Assembly (NCBI GenBank): GCA_041288095.1 | Contig: JBGGMJ010000038.1 | Location: forward strand, 1-28,298 | Direction: 5' to 3' | Length of the DNA: 28,298 bases | Origin: Myxococcota bacterium | GTDB lineage: Bacteria > Myxococcota > XYA12-FULL-58-9 > JALHOP01 | Shown: one piece after another, positions 1,736-14,661 of the stretch | Layout of the letters: the number at the start of each line of letters is the position of its first letter | Position numbering within the stretch: the stretch's first letter is position 1 | The notes under the pieces: generated by a model | The model's database searches: none | Seen by the model: the letters and a program-made list of their open reading frames with translations, nothing else | What the model was told of the DNA's origin: nothing | Program-made: the position numbers and the translations under genes

Positions 1736-1773
1736 AGGATCCGTGACTAGACTGCCTGGCCGGGGGCCAGGCC

Positions 1774-4023
1774 GTGACTGACGGCAGCGCACTGAACGTT
1801 TCGCATCTCAAGGGGGAGCTCGGGACCGGCCGGATGGCCCGGAACGAGCTGCTCGAGGAGATCGAGCGCCATCTCGACCGCAATCCCGAGCGCCCGCTCA
1901 CCGGCGCCCTCGAGCTGGTCTTGGAGCTCCTCCATCAATCGCCTTCGGATCCGCATCTCCTGCGCGTCCTCAAGCGCCTCTACGAACAAGACGGCCACGG
2001 TCGCGACGTCAACGACTTCCCCACTCCCGCGCTCGAGGCCGGGAGCGCCGATGAAGAAGGCCCCAGCACCGTCCGCGATCGCCTGATCGTTTCCCGCGCC
2101 CTGCTCGAGGCAGGGTTCATCGACGACGCCGAGACCAACGCCCGCGCCGCCATCGAGCTCGAGCCCAACAGCCTCGCGGCCTTGAACCTGCTCGCCAAGA
2201 TCCACCACACCCAGGGCAAGCTCTCCGCCATGATCGAGCTGTGGCGCGCCATCCAAGCCCGCAGCCCGCTCCGCGAAGACGCGCTCGCGTACCTCGGCTT
2301 CTTGCATCGCATGAGTCAGGACGAGAGCTTCGCCGGCGCGGCGCTCGTCGCCGTTGGTGACGGCGTCTACGCGCGCAAGCACGAGAGCCAACTCGAAATA
2401 GAAAAAGCCTTCGCCAAGTTTCGCGAGCGCAACTTCGAGGCCGCTATCGCGCAATGCGAGCGCTTCGCCGCCGCGAGCAAGAACAGCCCCGCGATCTACA
2501 AGCTCGCGGTCTTGCAGAAGGCGTGGATTCAAGAGCGCACCGATGATCTCGCCGGCGCCCAGCAAACCTTGCAGCAGCTCGGCCGTGAGCGGGGCTTCGA
2601 GACCGATCTCGATCGGCTCGGCTTCCTTGCGCGCGTTTGCGAGCGCTTGGGCACCAGCGACTCGACCGAACAAGCGCTGCACATCTACGAGCACCTCAAT
2701 CTCCGGCACGGCAAGCTCTCGGCGCTCCCGAGGCTCGCGGCCTTGAACGCGCAACGCGGTGACCAGGCCAAGGCACGCGCTTACGCCGCCGAGTACGAGC
2801 GCCGTTTCACCAAGCGCATGCAGAAGCCGAGCGCTGCCGAGCTGCTGCGCGCTCTGGCTCTTCGCTACATCCCGCTCGGCCGTGTCTCCCGTGGTCCGCT
2901 CACCGCCGAGGACATCCAAGACTGCGAGCTCGAGCTGCAGCTCGCCAAACACGGTGGTGCGCGGCGGCGGCGACGCGCTTTGCTCGCGTTCTTGCGTGAC
3001 GATGTCGCTAAAGCGGAGCGACTCTTCGCCCGCCTCACGCAATCGCGGTGGGCGGTGGCACGCGACCATGCGTACCTCGGTGACCTGCGCAACCTTACCG
3101 GCGCGGCACCGCCTGATGCTTGTTACGCCAAGGCGCTGACCGGCGGCATGCTCGATGAGCCCATGGTTTGGCGGAGCGCTCTCGCGACCCGCAATCGCAA
3201 GCCGCTCGAGGGCGCCATCGCCAGCATGACCGAGCAAGAGCGGACTCGCGCTCACGCCTGTCTCCTCGCCGCCGCCCGCCGCGATCACGCTAATACCGCG
3301 AGCTGGCGCGATCTCGCTGAGCTCGAGACACTCCTCGCCCGCAACGACGAAGCACGGCACCACCAGCGCAAAGCCGAGCAGCTCACCCAGGTGCACGCGG
3401 AGGCTCGTCCTCTAGGGCGGGTGCTGGTCGCCGCGGTCTACTCGCTCAACGGCAAGCCCAAGGGCGTCATCCACGAGCTGGTCGCGGCGCGCTACAAAGC
3501 CCCCGGTGATGCCGCCGCCGGACAGCTCGCCGAGCGCGACATTCTCGGCAACGTCATGCCCGACCTGCGCACCTTGGCCCGCTGGACGTTCGACGTCGTC
3601 TACGACTACGCCCGCGAGACCTGGCCGCACCTGGTACGCGACGTCTTCGACTATCGCTACACCATGCGCTTCAGCAAAGACGACGAGCCCTCGAGCGGCA
3701 ACTCGGCTGGTCTACCGATGGCTATCGCGCTCCTGTCGGTGTTGCTCGACCGCCCGGTGCCGCAGCACACCTGTCTCACGGGCGCGCTGGTTGGCGACTC
3801 CGCGCGCGAGCTCGCCGTGCGTCGCGTTGGTGACGCCGTCTACAAGGTGAAGGGCGCTTACCACCGTGGGCTGCGCCGCATCATCGTGCCGGCGGACAAC
3901 CGCGACGACATCGAGAGCGGTGAGCTGGTGCCGGCGAGCATCGCCTCGCAAATCGTGGGCTACGCGCGTAACCTCGACGACGCGGTACGCGAGCTCTGGG
4001 GCGAGCAGGCTTGGGATTGGTAG
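1774..4023 (+). CDS. TPR-like helical repeat protein with C-terminal Lon-type (S16) protease domain
   Basis: 749 aa (alternative ATG at 1834). TPR-like segments such as AETNARAAIELEPNSLAALNLLAKIHHTQGK. The C-terminus aligns by eye with the Lon in this window: SGNSAGLPMAIALLS vs [22 protein letters not shown] vs IAMTGEI; VGDAVYK vs IGGLKEK; RRIIVPADNRDDI vs [13 protein letters not shown]. No Walker A/B motif seen. Confidence 0.85.
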   Translation: MTDGSALNVSHLKGELGTGRMARNELLEEIERHLDRNPERPLTGALELVLELLHQSPSDPHLLRVLKRLYEQDGHGRDVNDFPTPALEAGSADEEGPSTVRDRLIVSRALLEAGFIDDAETNARAAIELEPNSLAALNLLAKIHHTQGKLSAMIELWRAIQARSPLREDALAYLGFLHRMSQDESFAGAALVAVGDGVYARKHESQLEIEKAFAKFRERNFEAAIAQCERFAAASKNSPAIYKLAVLQKAWIQERTDDLAGAQQTLQQLGRERGFETDLDRLGFLARVCERLGTSDSTEQALHIYEHLNLRHGKLSALPRLAALNAQRGDQAKARAYAAEYERRFTKRMQKPSAAELLRALALRYIPLGRVSRGPLTAEDIQDCELELQLAKHGGARRRRRALLAFLRDDVAKAERLFARLTQSRWAVARDHAYLGDLRNLTGAAPPDACYAKALTGGMLDEPMVWRSALATRNRKPLEGAIASMTEQERTRAHACLLAAARRDHANTASWRDLAELETLLARNDEARHHQRKAEQLTQVHAEARPLGRVLVAAVYSLNGKPKGVIHELVAARYKAPGDAAAGQLAERDILGNVMPDLRTLARWTFDVVYDYARETWPHLVRDVFDYRYTMRFSKDDEPSSGNSAGLPMAIALLSVLLDRPVPQHTCLTGALVGDSARELAVRRVGDAVYKVKGAYHRGLRRIIVPADNRDDIESGELVPASIASQIVGYARNLDDAVRELWGEQAWDW

Positions 4024-4127: not shown

Positions 4128-4760
4128 TTAGAAGCCGTTGATGCCGTAGCCCATGCGTGGGTCGATGCCCATCACGGGAGCGCCGAACGCGAGGCGCGGG
4201 TCATACGCGAGGCGCGGATCGACGTACGGCGTGTGCTGGAGGCCGGCGAGGTTCCAGCCCTGCTGCGGCCAGACGTTCTGCGCCTGCGTGTTCCAGTTGA
4301 TCCCCTGGATGGCGTGCGCGACACCGAGGCCGTGAGCCGCGAAGCGCGGGTCGATGCTGGTGTGCGACAAGCCCTGGTTCCAGCCGTACGCCGGCACGCC
4401 GAGGCGCGGGTCGATGCCGTAGGTCGGCACGACGCCGTACGGCGTGTTCAGACGCGGATCGACGCCGTAGGCCGGCGTGTGGTTCAAGCCGAAGCCCTGC
4501 GCCATCCGCGGATCGACGCCGTAAGCCGGCGTGTGGTTGAAGCCGTAGCCCTGCGTCATACGCGGGTCGACGCCGTAAGCGGGCGTGTGACCGAAGCCGA
4601 CGCCGGCGCTGAAGCGCGGGTCAGCGGCGTAGGGCGAGTGCGACAGACCACCGCCGAACATGGCGGCGCGCTGCGCCATCAAGGTGCGCTGGGTGATCAC
4701 ATCCAGCGTCTGAGCGATGAGGTCATTCAGGATCTGCAGCTTGGTGATTTCCGGATTCAT
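4128..4760 (-). CDS. Low-complexity G/Y/P/H-rich DPR-repeat protein of unknown function (210 aa)
   Basis: ATG at 4760 preceded by GGGAG (4766-4770); GC-rich third codon positions; followed by an intrinsic terminator; N-terminal amphipathic helix, then repeats of GxxHTPAYGVDPR. Confidence 0.85.
   Translation of the reverse strand: MNPEITKLQILNDLIAQTLDVITQRTLMAQRAAMFGGGLSHSPYAADPRFSAGVGFGHTPAYGVDPRMTQGYGFNHTPAYGVDPRMAQGFGLNHTPAYGVDPRLNTPYGVVPTYGIDPRLGVPAYGWNQGLSHTSIDPRFAAHGLGVAHAIQGINWNTQAQNVWPQQGWNLAGLQHTPYVDPRLAYDPRLAFGAPVMGIDPRMGYGINGF
4452..4649 (-). repeat. In-frame 54-bp (18-codon) tandem repeat, about 3.7 copies
   Basis: DPR-encoding words begin at 4452, 4506, 4560 and 4614 on the + strand (period 54). 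Unit is G[FL]xHTPAYGVDPRMxQG[YF], with mostly synonymous differences in the core. Confidence 0.92.
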
Positions 4761-4913: not shown

Positions 4914-5453
4914 TCAAGCGATTTCGACGCGGATGTCGCGCTGCGCCGCGGCGCGCACGTTCTTCTGGAACGTCACCTGGAGCACGCCGCGATCGAGCTT
5001 GGCGCTCGCGGTCTCGGTGTCCACGGTCTGCGGCAGCGGCAGGACGCGGTCGAAGCGGCCGCCCACGGTCTCGACGTGGACCGGGCGCAGCTCGCCGCTG
5101 CTCTCGCGGCCGTCACGACGGTTGCCGGCGATGTGCAGGCGATTGAGCTGAACCTGCACTTGCAGGTCGTTGCGCTCGACGCCCGGCATCTCGACTTCGC
5201 AAGCCCACTGCGACTCGTTCTCGAGGACGTTGATGCGCGGCATGATAGTCGGCATCGCGGCGCGGTTGTCGAGGCTGCTACCCGCCAGAGCGGACTGCAG
5301 GCGCGCGAGGTTTTCGCGCACGAACTGCTCGGCGTTGGCTTCCGGCGGGATCGGCGCCGTGGTGGCGTCGGCGCGACGCGGGTCGCTGCCAGTGAGCTGG
5401 CGGTAGATACCTTGAACCCGTGCAATCTCTTGGTCGACGTTCAAACTAGCCAT
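4914..5453 (-). CDS. Small heat-shock protein (Hsp20/alpha-crystallin) with extended helical N-terminus
   Basis: ATG at 5453 with AAGGA SD; 179 aa; alpha-crystallin motifs PRINVLE, EVEMPGV, LHIAGNR, GRFDRVLPLP, AKLDRGVLQVTF; C-terminal IxV motif (DIRVEIA). Confidence 0.92.
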   Translation of the reverse strand: MASLNVDQEIARVQGIYRQLTGSDPRRADATTAPIPPEANAEQFVRENLARLQSALAGSSLDNRAAMPTIMPRINVLENESQWACEVEMPGVERNDLQVQVQLNRLHIAGNRRDGRESSGELRPVHVETVGGRFDRVLPLPQTVDTETASAKLDRGVLQVTFQKNVRAAAQRDIRVEIA

Positions 5454-6545: not shown

Positions 6546-8507
6546 CTAGAAGGCGTAAGCGACGCGCAGCACGACTTCGCGACCCGGTCCGATGTAGGGC
6601 GGGTGTCCGCCGTCGTACGGCTGGATCAGCGGGTTGCGCGCGTCGCCGATGTTGTGGAGTGTGAGCGAGCCCTCGAGACCCTTCAACCGTGGGTCGTGCA
6701 CGAAGATCGTCGCCGACAGATAGACCACCGGTTTGAAGCTCGAGACCACCGCGTCACCGGCGCCATCGAAGCCCGCTATGGCGTATCGGCGGCTCATCCC
6801 CACCGCCGTGCCACCGACCGACAGCCATGGAGTCACGGCGAAGCTCCCCGCCAACGTCAGCTTGTGGGTCGGCCAGGCGAGTAGGTCTTTATCGCGGCCC
6901 GGTACTTCGTAGGTCGGCGTCGTGTCTTTTCCAGCGGTCGTATAGAACGAGTACCCGAGCGTCGCGTAGCTACCGGCATGCGAGTAGCGCAGTACCGACT
7001 CGACGCCGCGGCTGCCGATGTTGCCGGCGTTGGCGTAGAGCTCTTCACCCGAGGATGCGTCGACCCCGTAAACGATTGGATTGGTGATCGTGAGGTCGAA
7101 CAGGTTCGCGGTCAGGAACAAGCTCGAGCCGATGCGGTAGCCGCCCTCGATCTCGAACGCGGTGGTGCGCTCGGGCTCGATGTCGGGATTGGTCGCGATG
7201 TTCTCGATCACGGGCGCGCGGAAGGCACGCGACGCCAACCCCTTCACGTGGAATTCGCCGAAGACCCGCGTCAGAGCCAGGCGAGGCACGAACGAGGCAC
7301 CGAACTGCGAATGGTGCTCGACGCGCGCACCGCCTTGGATGTTGACGATGGACGTCCGCCACAGCGCTTCCGCGAAGCCGACATAGTTCTGGTAGTCGAC
7401 GCTGTTCTCGCCGTCGAACGTGGTGTTGAAGCCGAGGTCTGCTTGGTCGGCGTTGATGCTCGCGTGGTCGAGCCATACGTCGGCGCCGGCGGCCACTGTC
7501 AGTGTCTCGTGTGCCGCCCACAACGCCGTGGCACCGGCGGTCACGCGTCGCGCGGTCTTGTTATAGAAGCTCGGCTCGGCCTCGTCGGGTGTGTTCCAAG
7601 GTTTCTGCCAGGTCAACGACACACGCGGGGTGAGGGTCAGCGTGTCCGCCAGATGCCAGGCGTAGCGCACCTCGGCGCGCGCGGTGCGGAACGTCTGTGA
7701 CACCGGGGCCACGGCGAGCTCGCCGAACTCGGATTGCTCGGTGGTGCGATAGTCGTCATAGATGAAGCGCGCTTCGAGTCCGCGATAACGAACGCCTACG
7801 TTGACGAAGCCGGGGTTGAGGTCGCTTCCATCTTGCATGTCGAAGCGGTCGCCGTTCGCGTCCACGAAGATGCGGTCGCTGCGGATGCCTTGGCCGTAAG
7901 CGACCTGGCCGACGACTTCCAGCTCACCGATGCGTTGGCCGAAGCCGGCGCTCGCCTGCCAGCGGCCGGTGGTGTCGCGCATGCGGCCGTAAGTGGCCGC
8001 GACCGCGCCGCCATCGAGTGACGCCGCCGTCCGCGTGATCACATCGATGACCGCGAGCTCCGCGAAGCCGCCGTAGACCACCGAGCCCGGCCCGCGGATG
8101 ACCTCGACGCGCTCGATGAGCTCGACCGGGAAATGATTGCCGAACTGCAGCGTGCCATACAGCAGCTCGTTCATCGGCTGGCCGTCGATGAGCAAGAGCA
8201 CTTTGCCTTCGTGGCCCCACAGTCCGCGAAAGCCGATACCGACGACGCCCTGAACGTCGACACCGAAGCCGACACCCGGCACGAGCGCCAGCACGTCCAT
8301 CAGGTCGCGCGCCCCGACGCGCACGATCTCGTCCCGCGAGATCACCGTGATGATCGCGGGGGACTCGCGCAGCGTCAGTTGCGTCGAGGAGGCGACGTCC
8401 GTCTCGAACGTCAATAGCCCTTCGAGATCGAGGGTGTTGATGTCGACCTGTTCGGGTTCCGGTTCGACACTGAGGGCAAGGGCAACCACGAGGGGGGCGA
8501 GGTGCAC
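6546..8507 (-). CDS. TonB-dependent outer-membrane receptor
   Basis: 653 aa; hydrophobic N-terminus; plug motifs ESPAIITVISRDEI, LLLIDGQP, IERVEVIRGPGSVVYG; barrel motifs AFRAP and IEPE; C-terminal GREVVLRVAYAF ending in Phe. Confidence 0.93.
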   Translation of the reverse strand: MHLAPLVVALALSVEPEPEQVDINTLDLEGLLTFETDVASSTQLTLRESPAIITVISRDEIVRVGARDLMDVLALVPGVGFGVDVQGVVGIGFRGLWGHEGKVLLLIDGQPMNELLYGTLQFGNHFPVELIERVEVIRGPGSVVYGGFAELAVIDVITRTAASLDGGAVAATYGRMRDTTGRWQASAGFGQRIGELEVVGQVAYGQGIRSDRIFVDANGDRFDMQDGSDLNPGFVNVGVRYRGLEARFIYDDYRTTEQSEFGELAVAPVSQTFRTARAEVRYAWHLADTLTLTPRVSLTWQKPWNTPDEAEPSFYNKTARRVTAGATALWAAHETLTVAAGADVWLDHASINADQADLGFNTTFDGENSVDYQNYVGFAEALWRTSIVNIQGGARVEHHSQFGASFVPRLALTRVFGEFHVKGLASRAFRAPVIENIATNPDIEPERTTAFEIEGGYRIGSSLFLTANLFDLTITNPIVYGVDASSGEELYANAGNIGSRGVESVLRYSHAGSYATLGYSFYTTAGKDTTPTYEVPGRDKDLLAWPTHKLTLAGSFAVTPWLSVGGTAVGMSRRYAIAGFDGAGDAVVSSFKPVVYLSATIFVHDPRLKGLEGSLTLHNIGDARNPLIQPYDGGHPPYIGPGREVVLRVAYAF

Positions 8508-10070: not shown

Positions 10071-10910
10071 CTAGAACAGAATCAGCAGACCCAACGACGC
10101 GCCCTGATTCAACGCGGTGTTGAAGTTGAACCACGCCGGCGTGTTGCTCTCCTGGCGCGTGCTGGTGACGGTGGTCTCACCCGTGAGGGTGCTGGTCACC
10201 GTCGTGCGGTTGTCGAAGTCCGAGTACGTCAGGACGTCGAGCGTCGCGTTGTACTCGGCGAACACCGCGAAGTTCGGGTGCAAGCGCCACTCGGCGCCGA
10301 TGATGCCACGCAGGCCGAAGTTCAACTGGTTGGAGCGATTGCGGACGCTCGTCACCACGTTTTCGACCGTGACGTCATCGTCACTCGTCTCGCGTTGATG
10401 CCCGTACCCGACGTACGCGCCAGCGCCGACATACGGCGCCACCTTGTTACGCGTCAGACGATACAGCGCGTCGACGCGAGTGGTGACGTTGAAGTTGCTG
10501 GTCTGGCCGGCGTCGTAGTCATACGTCTTGACCACGCTCCCGGCGGTTTCCAGCGTCGTCTCCGTCGTCTGCGGCGGATTGTGCCCGCGCGACAGCGAAA
10601 CGCCGCCGCGGAGCATGAATTCCTCGCTGAACATCCAGGCGCCGGCGACTCCGAAGCCTTGGTACTCAGACAGGAAGCTGCCGTCCTGCAGGATGTTGTT
10701 GAACGAGAACACGAGACCCCAAGGCGTATTCCAGCCCTGGTCACGACGCTTGTCGACTTCGTAGTCGCTATTCGTCGTGGTGCTACTCGTTGTTACCGTC
10801 GTGGTGCTGCCGGTATTTACCGGCGGCGCCGTCGGGTCTTCTTGAGATCGAGCCGCAGTGGCCAGGAGCGAGCTCCCGAGCACCGCGGTCAATGCTAGCT
10901 TCTTGAACAT
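10071..10910 (-). CDS. Outer-membrane beta-barrel protein (small, OmpA/OmpW-like transmembrane fold)
   Basis: ATG at 10910 with AGAGGA SD; signal peptide MFKKLALTAVLGSSLLATAARS; amphipathic strands (VAPYVGAGAYVGY, GIIGAEWRLHPNFAVFAEY); C-terminal Phe. Confidence 0.8.
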   Translation of the reverse strand: MFKKLALTAVLGSSLLATAARSQEDPTAPPVNTGSTTTVTTSSTTTNSDYEVDKRRDQGWNTPWGLVFSFNNILQDGSFLSEYQGFGVAGAWMFSEEFMLRGGVSLSRGHNPPQTTETTLETAGSVVKTYDYDAGQTSNFNVTTRVDALYRLTRNKVAPYVGAGAYVGYGHQRETSDDDVTVENVVTSVRNRSNQLNFGLRGIIGAEWRLHPNFAVFAEYNATLDVLTYSDFDNRTTVTSTLTGETTVTSTRQESNTPAWFNFNTALNQGASLGLLILF

Positions 10911-10961
10911 CGATTCCTCTTTAGGGGTGAGTCGTTTTGTCAAACAGGGATCAAAGGCCGC

Positions 10962-12074
10962 TTATGGGACGTCGCGGACGTTGATGTTCGTGTTGACGTT
11001 GGTGGCAGTACCGCGCAGCGAGACCGCGTTCAGGTTCTCACAGGTCGCGCCACCAGAGACGCGCACACCCACGTTGTCGAAGCGCACGCGCAGATCCTGA
11101 GCGGTGTCGTCAGCGCCCTGGATGTTGTAAACCAGCGTGAGCTGCGTGCCGCCCGAGCCGAGCGTCGCGGTCACCGGGTTGACCGTCGCCGGAGCGATGG
11201 TGCCGGCGGGAACCGTGTTGACCCACGTCATCGGCGAAGCCAACGCGCAGAGCACGACCGGGTACGGGAAGGTCACAGTCAGGTTCGACTGCGTGCCACC
11301 GTTCTCGTTGTTCGCCGAGAGCGCGACCGGCTCGATCGCCGGTGGGCCCATGAACACCACGACCTGCGGGAAGTCGGTACCGGCCTTGAAGTTATCGACG
11401 ACCTTCGGGGTCAGGTACTGGTTCTGAGCATTACGCGCCGAGGTGACGGTGATGTCGTAGGTCGCGCCGTACACGAGCTGAGCGCGCGGCAGAGTCGCCG
11501 TCCCGCCGGTGATCGTGATGTTGATGGTGCTCGGCGTGAAGCCAACGGTGCCGCTGAACGGCGAGGTGCCGGCGCCCGCGAGCGAGCCGATGGTGGCGGT
11601 CAGGTCGATCTTGGCGCTCACTTCGCCGCTGGAGATCAGCGTGCCGGTGTTGCCGTCATAGACCTTCACGACCACGTCATCGCTGACGCTCAAGACCGGG
11701 AACATGGCGACGGTGAACGTCTGGAACGACGGCTCCGTCCACTCGCTGGTGATGTCATCACCACCGTTGAAGTTCTGCACACCGGTCACGGGGAGGAAGC
11801 CCTCCGCCGAGATGGTGACGGGGAACGAGCCGTTCGGAATGCCGGTGACGATGTACGCGTTACCCGCGAACTCGCCGGTCAGCGTGTTCTCCCCGACTTG
11901 CACTGTGACGGTCACGCCGTCGAGGACGCCGCCGCTCTGCGCGTCGAAGACAAACAACGTGAGGTTGTTCGTTCCGAAGCGGTATTGCGGACGATCGCCG
12001 AGCTCGACGTCGGTACCGCAGGATGTGATGGCAAAGGCAGATACAAATAGGACAGACGCAAGCAAACGCTTCAC
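10962..12074 (-). CDS. Beta-rich lipoprotein with carboxypeptidase-regulatory/Ig-like domains
   Basis: GTG with GGAGGA SD (12084-12089); signal peptide with lipobox-like ITSC (Cys19); VFDAQSGGVLDGVTVTV...GIPNGSFPVTISAEGF resembles a transthyretin-like sandwich; a second VYDGNTG unit follows. Confidence 0.75.
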   Translation of the reverse strand: MKRLLASVLFVSAFAITSCGTDVELGDRPQYRFGTNNLTLFVFDAQSGGVLDGVTVTVQVGENTLTGEFAGNAYIVTGIPNGSFPVTISAEGFLPVTGVQNFNGGDDITSEWTEPSFQTFTVAMFPVLSVSDDVVVKVYDGNTGTLISSGEVSAKIDLTATIGSLAGAGTSPFSGTVGFTPSTINITITGGTATLPRAQLVYGATYDITVTSARNAQNQYLTPKVVDNFKAGTDFPQVVVFMGPPAIEPVALSANNENGGTQSNLTVTFPYPVVLCALASPMTWVNTVPAGTIAPATVNPVTATLGSGGTQLTLVYNIQGADDTAQDLRVRFDNVGVRVSGGATCENLNAVSLRGTATNVNTNINVRDVP

Positions 12075-12200
12075 GTAGGACGTTCCTCCGCGATGCTGTG
12101 GGGGATTCCCGCATCGCAGGGCGCAATTTGCACGTGTAGTGGCGCCGGTGCAAAACCTTTCTTTCGGACGTGCTGACGGGCGACGTGATCAGGAGGTGAC

Positions 12201-12230
12201 TTGGCAGGGGTGGACCAGGGCGCCTATGCT
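12201..12230 (+). promoter_or_regulatory. Putative sigma70-type promoter of lon (possibly leaderless)
   Basis: TTGGCA (12201-12206), 18-nt spacer, TATGCT (12225-12230), then 7 nt to ATG 12238. Confidence 0.5.
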
Positions 12231-12237
12231 AGATCAC

Positions 12238-14661
12238 ATGATCATGAAGCCGTCCGAGCCTCGGCTGTTACCGCTGCTTCCGTTGCGCGACATCGTCGTC
12301 TTTCCGCACATGATGGTGCCGCTTTACGTTGGCCGGACGCGCTCGATCAACGCCGTCGAAGAAGCCATGCGTGGCAACCGCGAGATTCTGCTCGCCGCGC
12401 AGAAAAAGGCGAAGACCAACGAGCCCACGCCCGAAGATATCTTCATGGTCGGCACCGTCGGCCAGGTGATGCAGCACATCAAACGTCCCGACGGCACCGT
12501 GAAAGTGCTGGTCGAGGGACGCCGGCGCTGCCGCATCCGCCGCTTCATTGCCAACGAGTCGTTCTTCTTGGCGGAGGTCGAGGACGTCGCCGAGCGCACC
12601 GATCCATCCGTCGAGCTCGACGCGCTGGTGCGCACCGTTCAAGACACCTTCGACAACTACGCGCGGCTCTCGCGTCGCCTGCAGCCCGACGTTTTGATGT
12701 CCATCAAAGCGATCGAGGACGCCGGCCGGCTCGCTGACACCATCGTCGCGCACCTGCCCATCAAGCATCCGGACAAGCAGGCGATGCTCGAGATGGACCT
12801 CGCGAAGGAGCGTCTCGAGAAGCTCTACGAGCTCATGCAGGGCGAGATCGAAATCCTGCAGGTCGAGAGGAAGATCCGCTCGCGCGTCAAGAAGCAGATG
12901 GAGCGCACCGAGAAGGAGTACTACCTCAACGAGCAAATGCGGGCGATCCAGAAGGAGCTGGGCGAGCGCGACGAGTTCAAGAACGAGATTCAAGAGCTCG
13001 AGGAAAAGCTCAAGGCCAAGAAGGTGCCCGCCGAAGCCCGCGCCAAGGTCGAAAAAGAAGTCAAAAAGCTCAAGATGATGTCGCCGATGTCCGCTGAAGC
13101 GACAGTCGTGCGCAACTACATCGACTGGTGCATCGCGCTGCCGTGGCAGGAGTACACCGAGGAGAAGCTCGACATCACGCAGGCCGAGAACATCCTCGAC
13201 GAGGATCACTACGGCCTGAAGAAACCGAAAGAGCGCATCCTCGAGTACTTGGCCGTCCACAAGCTGGTCGAGAAGATGAAAGGACCGATCTTGTGTCTGG
13301 TCGGTCCGCCCGGCGTCGGTAAGACGTCGCTCGCGCGCTCGATTGCGCGCGCCACCCAACGCAACTTCGTGCGCTTGTCGCTCGGCGGCGTGCGTGACGA
13401 GGCGGAGATCCGCGGTCATCGCAGCACGTACATCGGCGCGCTGCCCGGCAAGATCATTCAGTCGTTGCGCAAGGCAGGGTCGTCGAACCCGGTCTTCCTC
13501 CTCGACGAGATCGACAAGATGTCGATGGACTTCCGCGGCGATCCGTCAGCCGCGCTGCTCGAGGTCTTGGACCCGGCGCAGAACGAGACGTTCAACGACC
13601 ATTACCTCGACATGGACTACGACCTGTCGCGGATCATGTTCATCTGCACCGCCAATTCGCTGCAGAACATTCCGCTGCCGCTCGAGGACCGTCTCGAGAT
13701 CATCCGCCTCGCCGGCTACACCGAGATGGAAAAGCTCGCTATCGCGGAAAAGTATCTGGTCCCGAAGCAGCTCAAGGAGAACGGCATCGGCGACGTGTCG
13801 GTCGATTGGAACGAGGCCGCCACCAAGACGATCATTCAGCTCTACACGCGGGAAGCGGGCGTGCGTACGCTCGAGCGCGAGATCGCCGCGGTGTCGCGCA
13901 AGATCGCCAAAGAGGTGGTCAAAAACGGAAAGGACCAGAAGTTCCGTGTCACGCCGTCGGTGACGAAGAAGTACTTGGGCGTGGCGAAGTTCCGCGCCAA
14001 CCGTCGCGAAGACATCGCCGAGATCGGCATGGCCACCGGCCTCGCCTGGACGCAGATGGGCGGCGAGATCTTGCAGATCGAGGTCACGACGATGCCCGGC
14101 AAGGGCAAGCTGACCATCACTGGCAAGCTCGGTGACGTCATGCAGGAGTCCGCTCAAGCGGCCATGAGCTACGTGCGCGCGCGCGCCAACTCGTGGGGGC
14201 TCGCCAACGACTTCTACGCGTCGGTGGACATCCACATCCACGTGCCCGAGGGCGCGATGCCCAAGGACGGTCCGTCCGCGGGTATCACCATGGCGACGGC
14301 GCTGGTCTCGGCGCTCACCAAGATCCCGGTGCGGCATGACATCGCCATGACCGGCGAGATCACGCTGCGCGGTCGCGTCTTGCCGATCGGTGGCTTGAAG
14401 GAAAAGGCGCTGGCTGCCCATCGCGCCGAGATCCGCGAGATCATCGTCCCCAAAGAGAACGAGAAGGACCTCGACGAGATCCCATCGAGCGTTCGCAAGG
14501 CCCTGCGCATTCACGTGGTCGATCACATCGACCAGGTGCTGCGTCACGCTCTCGAGCTCTCCGACCCCGAGGAGTTTTTCTCGCGGGGGAAGGGGCCGAT
14601 CAAAGAGCCTGGCGAGCCACGCAGCGGTGAGCCCGCGGCTGGTGGCACTAAGGTTCAGTGA
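12238..14661 (+). CDS. lon: ATP-dependent Lon protease (LonA)
   Basis: [14 protein letters not shown]-domain; Walker A GPPGVGKT; Walker [17 protein letters not shown] catalytic Ser (14275) with Lys 43 residues later (14404). Start is 12238 or 12244 rather than 12139. Confidence 0.98.

Follow-up and report, generated by a model that had tools for sequence, protein, structure and literature searches.

A predicted TPR-Lon protease without an ATP motor, encoded with a small heat-shock protein and a low-complexity candidate substrate in Myxococcota and other phyla

Description

What does a Lon protease domain do when it comes without its ATP-driven motor, and what might it cut? The question is raised by a gene in a 28,298-nucleotide stretch of DNA from a Myxococcota bacterium (GenBank assembly GCA_041288095.1, contig JBGGMJ010000038.1, positions 1 to 28,298 of the forward strand; hereafter the window), whose 749-amino-acid product carries a Lon domain behind a tetratricopeptide repeat (TPR)-like helical arm. 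The features of this protein, which we call TPR-Lon, support an intact Lon-type protease without an ATP motor, with activity predicted. Its gene forms a cassette with two neighbours, one encoding a small heat-shock protein (Hsp20) and the other a low-complexity protein with a repeated motif (the partner), which is the candidate substrate. Coordinates are given in Table 1.

The initial annotation had described the product as a Lon domain with an intact Ser-Lys dyad fused to a TPR-like arm in place of AAA+, and every structural claim it made holds. In Pfam searches the 749-residue protein matched Lon_C (PF05362; E 3.5e-8, 33.7 bits against a cut-off of 21.1) and, weakly and below the cut-off of 32.7, TPR_16 (E 2e-4, 22 bits), while no AAA family matched; TPR profile matches exceed the cut-off in some homologues (P0058, P0066), and the model of the window protein consists of helical hairpins. 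The Walker motifs said to be missing are indeed missing, a Walker-A-like string being absent from the window protein and present in only 2 of 106 homologues, at unrelated positions. In the AlphaFold2 model (predicted local distance difference test 88, predicted template modelling score 0.87) residues 9-543 are helical bar one short hairpin, in agreement with the roughly 540 residues of helical repeats claimed, and the structure beyond them is alpha/beta. Alignment occupancy marks arm residues 1 to about 95 as a clade-specific extension that most homologues do not have. The C-terminal domain matches solved Lon protease domains with a Z of 25.2 and a root-mean-square deviation of 2.2 Å over 189 aligned residues (template modelling score 0.85 on the target), and the Lon-like domains of BrxL and RadA match it at a Z of about 20.

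BLASTP alignment to the canonical Lon encoded in the window (12139-14661) sets GNSAG opposite GPSAG, with a 4-residue insertion after the TG motif, and both dyad codons lie where they had been placed, facing the Ser (14275, TCC) and Lys (14404, AAG) codons of that Lon. The Ser-Lys spacing is 47 rather than 43 residues, and is 47 in 105/105 homologues holding both residues; the C-terminus reads WGEQAWDW as reported. The dyad is conserved (Table 1), the sole Ser-to-Ala replacement among the 106 homologues being that of P0053. Invariant positions in the 106-row homologue alignment are G564, H567, D637, S640, G642, G670 and P706, and within the acidic loop conservation is 106/106 for D637, 103/106 for E638 and 106/106 for S640. 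The loop Asp637-Ser640 is a candidate reader of the histidine in the partner motif.

Homologues numbered 31 proteins, query included, by word-indexed search and 105 clusters at E <= 1e-30 by profile search (a few of them TPR-only), and ESM Atlas matches to the protease were at the level of leads (0.83 at most). Two distant TPR-Lon proteins, P0118 and P0130 (794 and 774 amino acids), have the nucleophile motif G-G-[RK]-S-A-G and are probably a sister family. NCBIfam equivalogs scored far below their cut-offs (TIGR00763, 31.7 against 608; TIGR00764, 33.5 against 517), SAVED gave no Pfam match in the window protein, and PADLOC matches were confined to the Lon domain (E 0.002-0.003). By the features tested the protein is not LonA, LonB or CalpL, and its protease domain is a member of S16. 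LonA and LonB (MEROPS S16; PF05362) share the fold and the dyad with it, whereas the window protein has the TPR-like arm instead of AAA+ and the Lon N-domain, and a K-[DE]-D-E-P-S-x-G-x-S loop where theirs is P-K-D-G-P-S. A literature search, with subscription papers and supplementary neighbourhood tables beyond its reach, found no paper on the TPR-Lon architecture or on the three-gene cassette, which agrees with the initial annotation, where the architecture was not recognised as characterised.

Which genes accompany the protease was asked in 69 related loci from species-representative genomes (70 sequences with the window), titled as Myxococcota (including cultured Polyangium), Thermoanaerobaculia and other Acidobacteriota, Eisenbacteria, Rokubacteria and a few others. 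Clustering of the 853 called genes gave two neighbour families present in 47/70 sequences each, the next family reaching 17/70. In the window these two are the Hsp20 and partner genes, both converging on the protease gene. Once 12 of the 69 loci that end within 1 kb of the protease were dropped, 57 informative loci remained; Hsp20 is present in 53 of them (including one fragment and one frameshifted copy), while the N-terminal profile finds the partner in 48, or 51 with three divergent partners (L042, L064, L066). The partner/Hsp20 pair lies elsewhere in the genome for L027 and L051, L038 breaks off where the locus ends, and at least one cassette gene is decayed in each of L049, L050 and L068. 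Approached from the partner side, the protease is found in 33/33 metagenome loci with at least 700 bp downstream, counted among the best 80 of 281 partner matches, a selection that favours typical members.

Whole genomes give a similar picture. Among 401 genomes of the window's phylum the protease occurs in 16, the partner (by profile) in 11 and an Hsp20 with the family's N-terminal segment in 15, of which 13 have the protease. Adding four divergent partners brings the partner to 13 of the 16 protease genomes, the misses being G062 and G178, both with the gene at a contig end, and G053. A 251-genome sample holds the partner in 6 and the full protease in the same 6 (plus one protease fragment), and a 121-genome sample holds the partner in 4 and the protease in the same 4 (plus one TPR-only match); within the window genus the protease family is in 2/4 genomes. 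Gene trees of 41 complete triples show 18/20 supported Hsp20 splits and 15/20 partner splits recurring in the protease tree. The three genes are inherited together. The protease tree, a quick tree, clusters by phylum, with Myxococcota in three places.

The Hsp20 gene is the first of the partner operon, and its product matches Pfam HSP20 at residues 77-178 (E 2e-16, 60.1 bits against a cut-off of 20.8). A family-specific N-terminal segment, I-D-x-x-I-x-x-V-E-x-L-Y...T-G...P-x-E-x-D-P...L-x-x-L, precedes the alpha-crystallin domain in the alignment. Identity with the gas-vesicle protein GvpH was considered and rejected, with a match of just E 0.14 in one Hsp20 and no gvp neighbours.

The partner begins with a conserved helix, followed in the window by a region that is almost without charge, is rich in Gly, Pro, Ala and Tyr, and contains six G-[LF]-x-H-[TS] motifs, the second to fourth of which lie within a 54-nucleotide tandem repeat. 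Across the family the middle region changes fast; Gly, Pro, Gln, Ala and aromatic residues are abundant in it, and Lys, Glu and Asp almost absent. In the model of the L021 orthologue residues 5-33 form the helix and the middle is of low confidence, probably disordered. Most clades end in a DP...RIxQTFP element that the window copy lacks. No Pfam, NCBIfam or PADLOC family matched the window partner, a profile search found 1241 relatives, of which the best 120 are all unnamed or 'hypothetical', and ESM Atlas matches were to unnamed clusters (0.91, 0.90). Neither a membrane segment (maximum 19-residue hydropathy 0.83) nor an effector domain was found in the partner. Fusions were sought by searching longer proteins with the N-terminal 42 residues, which gave 5 matches of 317-339 amino acids; the three inspected are longer low-complexity versions.

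The motif, in the form G-[L/F/I]-x-H-[T/S], is strongly enriched: 52 partners contain 146 copies where shuffling gives 1.45, and 120 database partners (the best 120 of 1241) contain 346 where it gives 3.5. All 51 partners over 60 amino acids have it, 50 of them in at least two copies. Outside the family it is rare: among 29,199 six-frame open reading frames (ORFs) of the window genome the only one with at least two motifs is the partner, and other called genes of the loci have 10 copies in 271,131 residues, 5 of these in two divergent partners. The first motif lies 23 residues past the helix signature in 109/125 database proteins and the last a median of 28 residues before QTFP, and longer proteins tend to have more motifs (rho 0.30-0.43). 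Motif placement thus brackets and subdivides the region predicted to be disordered. For such repeated tags a PatE-like multi-core precursor of a ribosomally synthesised and post-translationally modified peptide was also considered and rejected, as no conserved modifying enzymes or transporters lie nearby. The C-terminal residue is Tyr or Phe in 116/120 top relatives (P0181-P0300), mostly in the form V-V-x-[LIV]-Y, and is possibly a ligand of the TPR arm or an IxI-like Hsp20-binding motif. In L026, L028 and L030 one protease is flanked by two partner/Hsp20 pairs, with a ferritin-like gene and a 70-80-amino-acid ORF between; of the two partner copies one is rich in Pro and the other in Gly and Gln, and the tags are kept in both.

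Does the motif follow the protease or the Hsp20? Two genomes, G161 (97% complete) and G142, have partner and Hsp20 with no protease match, and their partners have zero motifs. Conversely, at L042 the protease lies beside a 544-amino-acid low-complexity divergent partner with five motifs, in a genome that gave no Hsp20 of the cassette type; the N-terminal likeness of this protein to the partner family is weak (probability 61%). L064 and the four divergent partners of the phylum sample keep two motifs despite a drifted helix. These few cases suggest that the motif tracks the protease rather than Hsp20.

The partner operon has a sigma-54-type promoter ahead of its first gene in 14/50 loci, against 0.6 in shuffles, 0/50 for second genes and 0/60 for protease genes; L042 has such a promoter too, with an activator and its divergent partner. 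In twelve loci a sigma-54 activator is encoded no more than about 200 bp from the protease gene, and in 5/7 examined activators the open frame ahead of Walker A spans at most 63 residues, too short a stretch to hold a sensor domain. Two proteins, P0080 and that of G053 (L135:6043-9207), fuse FHA, sigma-54 activator and TPR-Lon in 1030 and 1054 amino acids. Another Acidobacteriota clade has a response-regulator-like gene (family F4, 11 loci, called from the sequence by eye) directly upstream of the partner operon, and an element resembling CAGGGATT...CCCC was seen by eye in the stretch separating the partner operon from the regulator-like gene upstream of it in L006, L013, L015, L020, L021, L024, L025 and L036. 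The L042 activator (11947-13107, minus strand) carries a GLLHS tag at residue 288, in the linker between its AAA and helix-turn-helix (HTH) domains; none of the other activators of this kind, 18 in all, has the tag, which could be a feedback cut site or chance. In the window we found neither a sigma-70 nor a sigma-54 site, terminators at chance level, and neither an adjacent activator nor a response-regulator gene of the kinds found at other loci.

Proposed mechanism and alternatives

How might the three proteins work together? On balance we lean slightly towards TPR-Lon being a sequence-specific, ATP-independent endopeptidase that would cut its low-complexity neighbour at the tags and thereby remodel an Hsp20-held assembly. 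Partner and Hsp20 would be made from one regulated operon (of sigma-54 or response-regulator type in several clades), the co-encoded Hsp20 would chaperone the partner, and the uncharged Gly/Pro/Gln/aromatic region would bring the two together in a granule or condensate. The TPR arm would select or hold the partner and gate the active site, and the protease would read the tag, perhaps via the invariant acidic loop D637-E638 beside Ser644, and cut, the candidate scissile bonds being those between G and L or between L and x. Cuts at the tags would free the N-terminal helix and divide the sticky region into fragments about 16-84 residues long, so that the assembly dissolves or matures; no ATP motor would be needed because the partner is probably unfolded already. 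Canonical Lon cuts after Leu; cleavage after Gly would leave a fragment with a Leu/Phe degron at its N-terminus and an x-x-His end of the copper-binding ATCUN (amino-terminal copper and nickel) type. CalpL cuts between alanines (10.1101/2024.05.08.593097), and motor-less Lon domains therefore need not follow canonical specificity. The wider proposal of a portable three-gene condensate or granule cycle, in which a prion-like scaffold would travel with its own small heat-shock chaperone and with a TPR-Lon that reads a GLxH[TS] code and cuts the scaffold at built-in sites, is offered tentatively. Such a cycle would be a genetically encoded means of making and dissolving a membraneless compartment in soil bacteria of the Myxococcota, Thermoanaerobaculia, Eisenbacteria and Rokubacteria, and would include a new pair of site-specific protease and tag.

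Several points weigh against cleavage of a granule-forming partner. Granule formation is something we infer from composition alone, and the repeated motif could be a docking site and not a cut site. The dissociation of the motif rests on two protease-less genomes, one of them (G142) 85% complete in 1160 contigs, and on one locus without Hsp20; moreover G281 has a second partner copy without the motif though an intact protease is encoded elsewhere in the genome, and G053 (96% complete) has the fused protease with no partner or cassette-type Hsp20 found. The partner and Hsp20 profiles were built on the loci first counted, some of which also occur in the genome samples, and related genomes are not independent. 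Agreement among the trees is also expected under plain vertical descent, and the protease gene is mostly convergent with the partner operon, not co-transcribed. A complex prediction for the L021 protease, Hsp20 and partner gave a score that was not specific against the control and is used as evidence neither way.

The promoters and activators described above would also fit a signalling switch, in which the partner helix acts as a trans-acting inhibitor of a transcription activator, much as PspA inhibits the sensor-less activator PspF; cleavage at the first tag would release or destroy the helix, and the low-complexity region with Hsp20 would sense stress. The lack of room for sensor domains, the combination of promoter, activator and divergent partner at L042, and the FHA-activator-TPR-Lon fusions speak for such a switch, as does CalpL, which cleaves an anti-sigma factor (10.1101/2024.05.08.593097). 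Most loci, the window included, are nevertheless without an adjacent activator or sigma-54 promoter, and although a single cut would suffice, 2-7 tags are retained, their number scaling with length. We regard the switch as unlikely; its cleavage step is common to it and to the remodelling reading. If the tag were instead a docking or activating ligand, or a metal site, the partner could switch on or scaffold the protease, which would degrade other, misfolded proteins that Hsp20 has trapped, a form of triage independent of ATP. Hsp20 proteins act as general holdases and TPR arms bind short linear motifs, the covariation of motif and protease fits docking as well as it fits cleavage, and metal binding would suit both the ATCUN-type end exposed by a cut after Gly and the ferritin-like gene adjacent or near in 4 Eisenbacteria-type loci. 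The ferritin link is limited to that one clade, however, degradation of aggregated clients is hard to explain without an unfoldase, and the invariant family-specific residues cluster at the active-site loop and therefore suggest a narrow specificity; triage of this kind seems to us rather improbable.

The initial annotation had proposed a ligand- or partner-activated protease in signalling, defence or quality control, and had suggested asking whether homologues cluster in defence islands. The link to a partner is supported, in the more specific form of two conserved partner genes, and the clustering is not. PADLOC (the 2.0 library of 2023) was run on 148 of 406 neighbour families, chosen as the nearest and up to about 3 kb away, and 8 matched; 7 of these look generic (ABC ATPase, sigma-54 AAA, SNF2 helicase, HTH, radical SAM, oxidoreductase), and the single specific-looking match is PDC-S01 at L007. 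A defence island is thus unsupported, neighbour families rarely matching PADLOC. The three cassette proteins matched no PADLOC defence model beyond the shared Lon domain, and neither the cassette nor the neighbours covered qualify as an anti-phage system known to PADLOC 2.0. The 148 families gave no Cas effector-complex match, only one Csa3-like HTH, and no type III CRISPR with anti-sigma and extracytoplasmic function (ECF) sigma genes is a conserved neighbour in the 69 loci. An anti-phage or cell-death system, whose TPR sensor would activate the protease to cut its neighbour into a toxic or amyloid-forming fragment, has in its favour the patchy distribution (16/401 genomes of the phylum sample, 2/4 of the genus), the prion-like composition of the partner, and a layout of TPR-protease plus dedicated substrate that is common in defence, as in TPR-protease/gasdermin and Csx29/Csx30 pairs. 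The neighbours are, however, housekeeping and transport genes, the gene tree clusters by phylum, control of the sigma-54 and response-regulator kinds points to a stress or developmental programme, and the partner has neither membrane segment nor effector domain, all of which makes such a system very improbable in our view.

By analogy, the cassette may work like known cassettes that pair a protease with a dedicated substrate. CalpL-CalpT-CalpS (10.1101/2024.05.08.593097) likewise joins an ATP-independent Lon domain to a sensor or scaffold domain and has a dedicated co-encoded substrate (putative here); CalpL has SAVED, binds cyclic tetra-adenylate (cA4), forms filaments, cuts at one Ala-rich site in an anti-sigma factor, is CRISPR-linked and has the dyad S154/K195, whereas the window cassette has TPR, neither SAVED nor CRISPR, a low-complexity partner with 2-7 His-containing tags, and Hsp20. 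The remaining relatives differ in other ways. Csx29/Csx30 and the bacterial gasdermin proteases also set a helical-repeat arm and protease beside a substrate gene, with caspase-like CHAT or trypsin-like domains, a folded effector and a role in defence, a context that the neighbour families covered here did not show. PDZ-Lon, BrxL and RadA have Lon domains outside canonical Lon, as here, but PDZ-Lon is membrane-anchored, BrxL and RadA have ATPase domains, and their accessory domains are unlike that of the window protein. Small heat-shock proteins that work with disordered partners (HspB8 with low-complexity domains; BAG3) show the same pairing of chaperone and low-complexity protein; those pairs are eukaryotic and, unlike the window cassette, have no dedicated protease, operon or repeated private tag.

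ATP-motor-less Lon domains are known from few systems, such as the CRISPR-linked CalpL, and TPR-Lon is a separate family in at least 4 phyla whose candidate substrate and candidate recognition code can be read from genomes alone. If the remodelling reading is right, site-specific proteolysis coupled to a small heat-shock protein would control assembly of a low-complexity protein in bacteria, and a function would be assigned to over 1,200 'hypothetical' proteins. It would also provide an orthogonal protease/tag pair, since the tag recurs (at least 2 copies) in no other reading frame of the window genome. Cultured Polyangium strains have the cassette (L054, L057), and native-host genetics is therefore within reach.

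Features and setting in the window

Table 1. Features of the TPR-Lon cassette, in window coordinates.
Feature	Coordinates	Strand	Basis
TPR-Lon protease gene, 749 amino acids, without AAA+ module	1774..4023	+	ORF, Pfam, AlphaFold2 model, alignment
Helical TPR-like arm, residues 1-543	1774..3402	+	DSSP on AlphaFold2 model, alignment occupancy, weak TPR matches
Lon (S16) proteolytic domain, residues 544-749, family signature K-[DE]-D-E-P-S-[SG]-G-x-S-A-G	3403..4020	+	
His567, second strand of protease domain, invariant (106/106)	3472..3474	+	homologue alignment
Acidic loop Asp637-Glu638-Pro639-Ser640, family-specific, just N-terminal of the nucleophile	3682..3693	+	
Predicted catalytic Ser644, codon TCG	3703..3705	+	aligns with Lon Ser; 105/106 homologues
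Predicted catalytic Lys691, codon AAG	3844..3846	+	106/106 homologues
Low-complexity partner, 210 amino acids, candidate substrate	4128..4760	-	sequence, composition
Conserved N-terminal helix of partner (KLQxLND..I.QT.D.L)	4662..4760	-	partner alignment
Motif 1, GLSHS, shortly past the helix	4635..4649	-	
Motif 2, GFGHT	4584..4598	-	
Motif 3, GFNHT	4530..4544	-	
Motif 4, GLNHT	4476..4490	-	
Motif 5, GLSHT	4359..4373	-	
Motif 6, GLQHT	4230..4244	-	
Small heat-shock protein (Hsp20), 179 amino acids, first gene of partner operon	4914..5453	-	Pfam, alignment

In the window tig precedes the protease gene, and clpP, clpX and lon follow. This setting recurs in 1/69 loci only (L001, 93% identical), and in the same-genus genomes G066 and G086, which gave no match to the protease family, the tig-clpP gaps of 0.9 and 1.4 kb are occupied by unrelated ORFs. 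A role as a housekeeping partner of tig, ClpXP or Lon is rejected on these grounds; the tig-clpP gap is a slot for variable cargo, and the setting in the window is misleading. The ORFs in the gaps of G066 and G086 are a collagen-like one of lipoprotein type and a second, unrelated one. Further reverse-strand cargo in the window (6546-8507, 10071-10943 and 10962-12074) sits in two more gaps: a TonB-plug protein separates clpP from clpX, and the genes clpX and lon are separated by an outer-membrane beta-barrel and a carboxypeptidase-regulatory-like protein. Antisense open frames at 217-1716 and 1747-3396 (minus strand), over tig and the protease gene, have no Pfam match and are typical of high-GC DNA.

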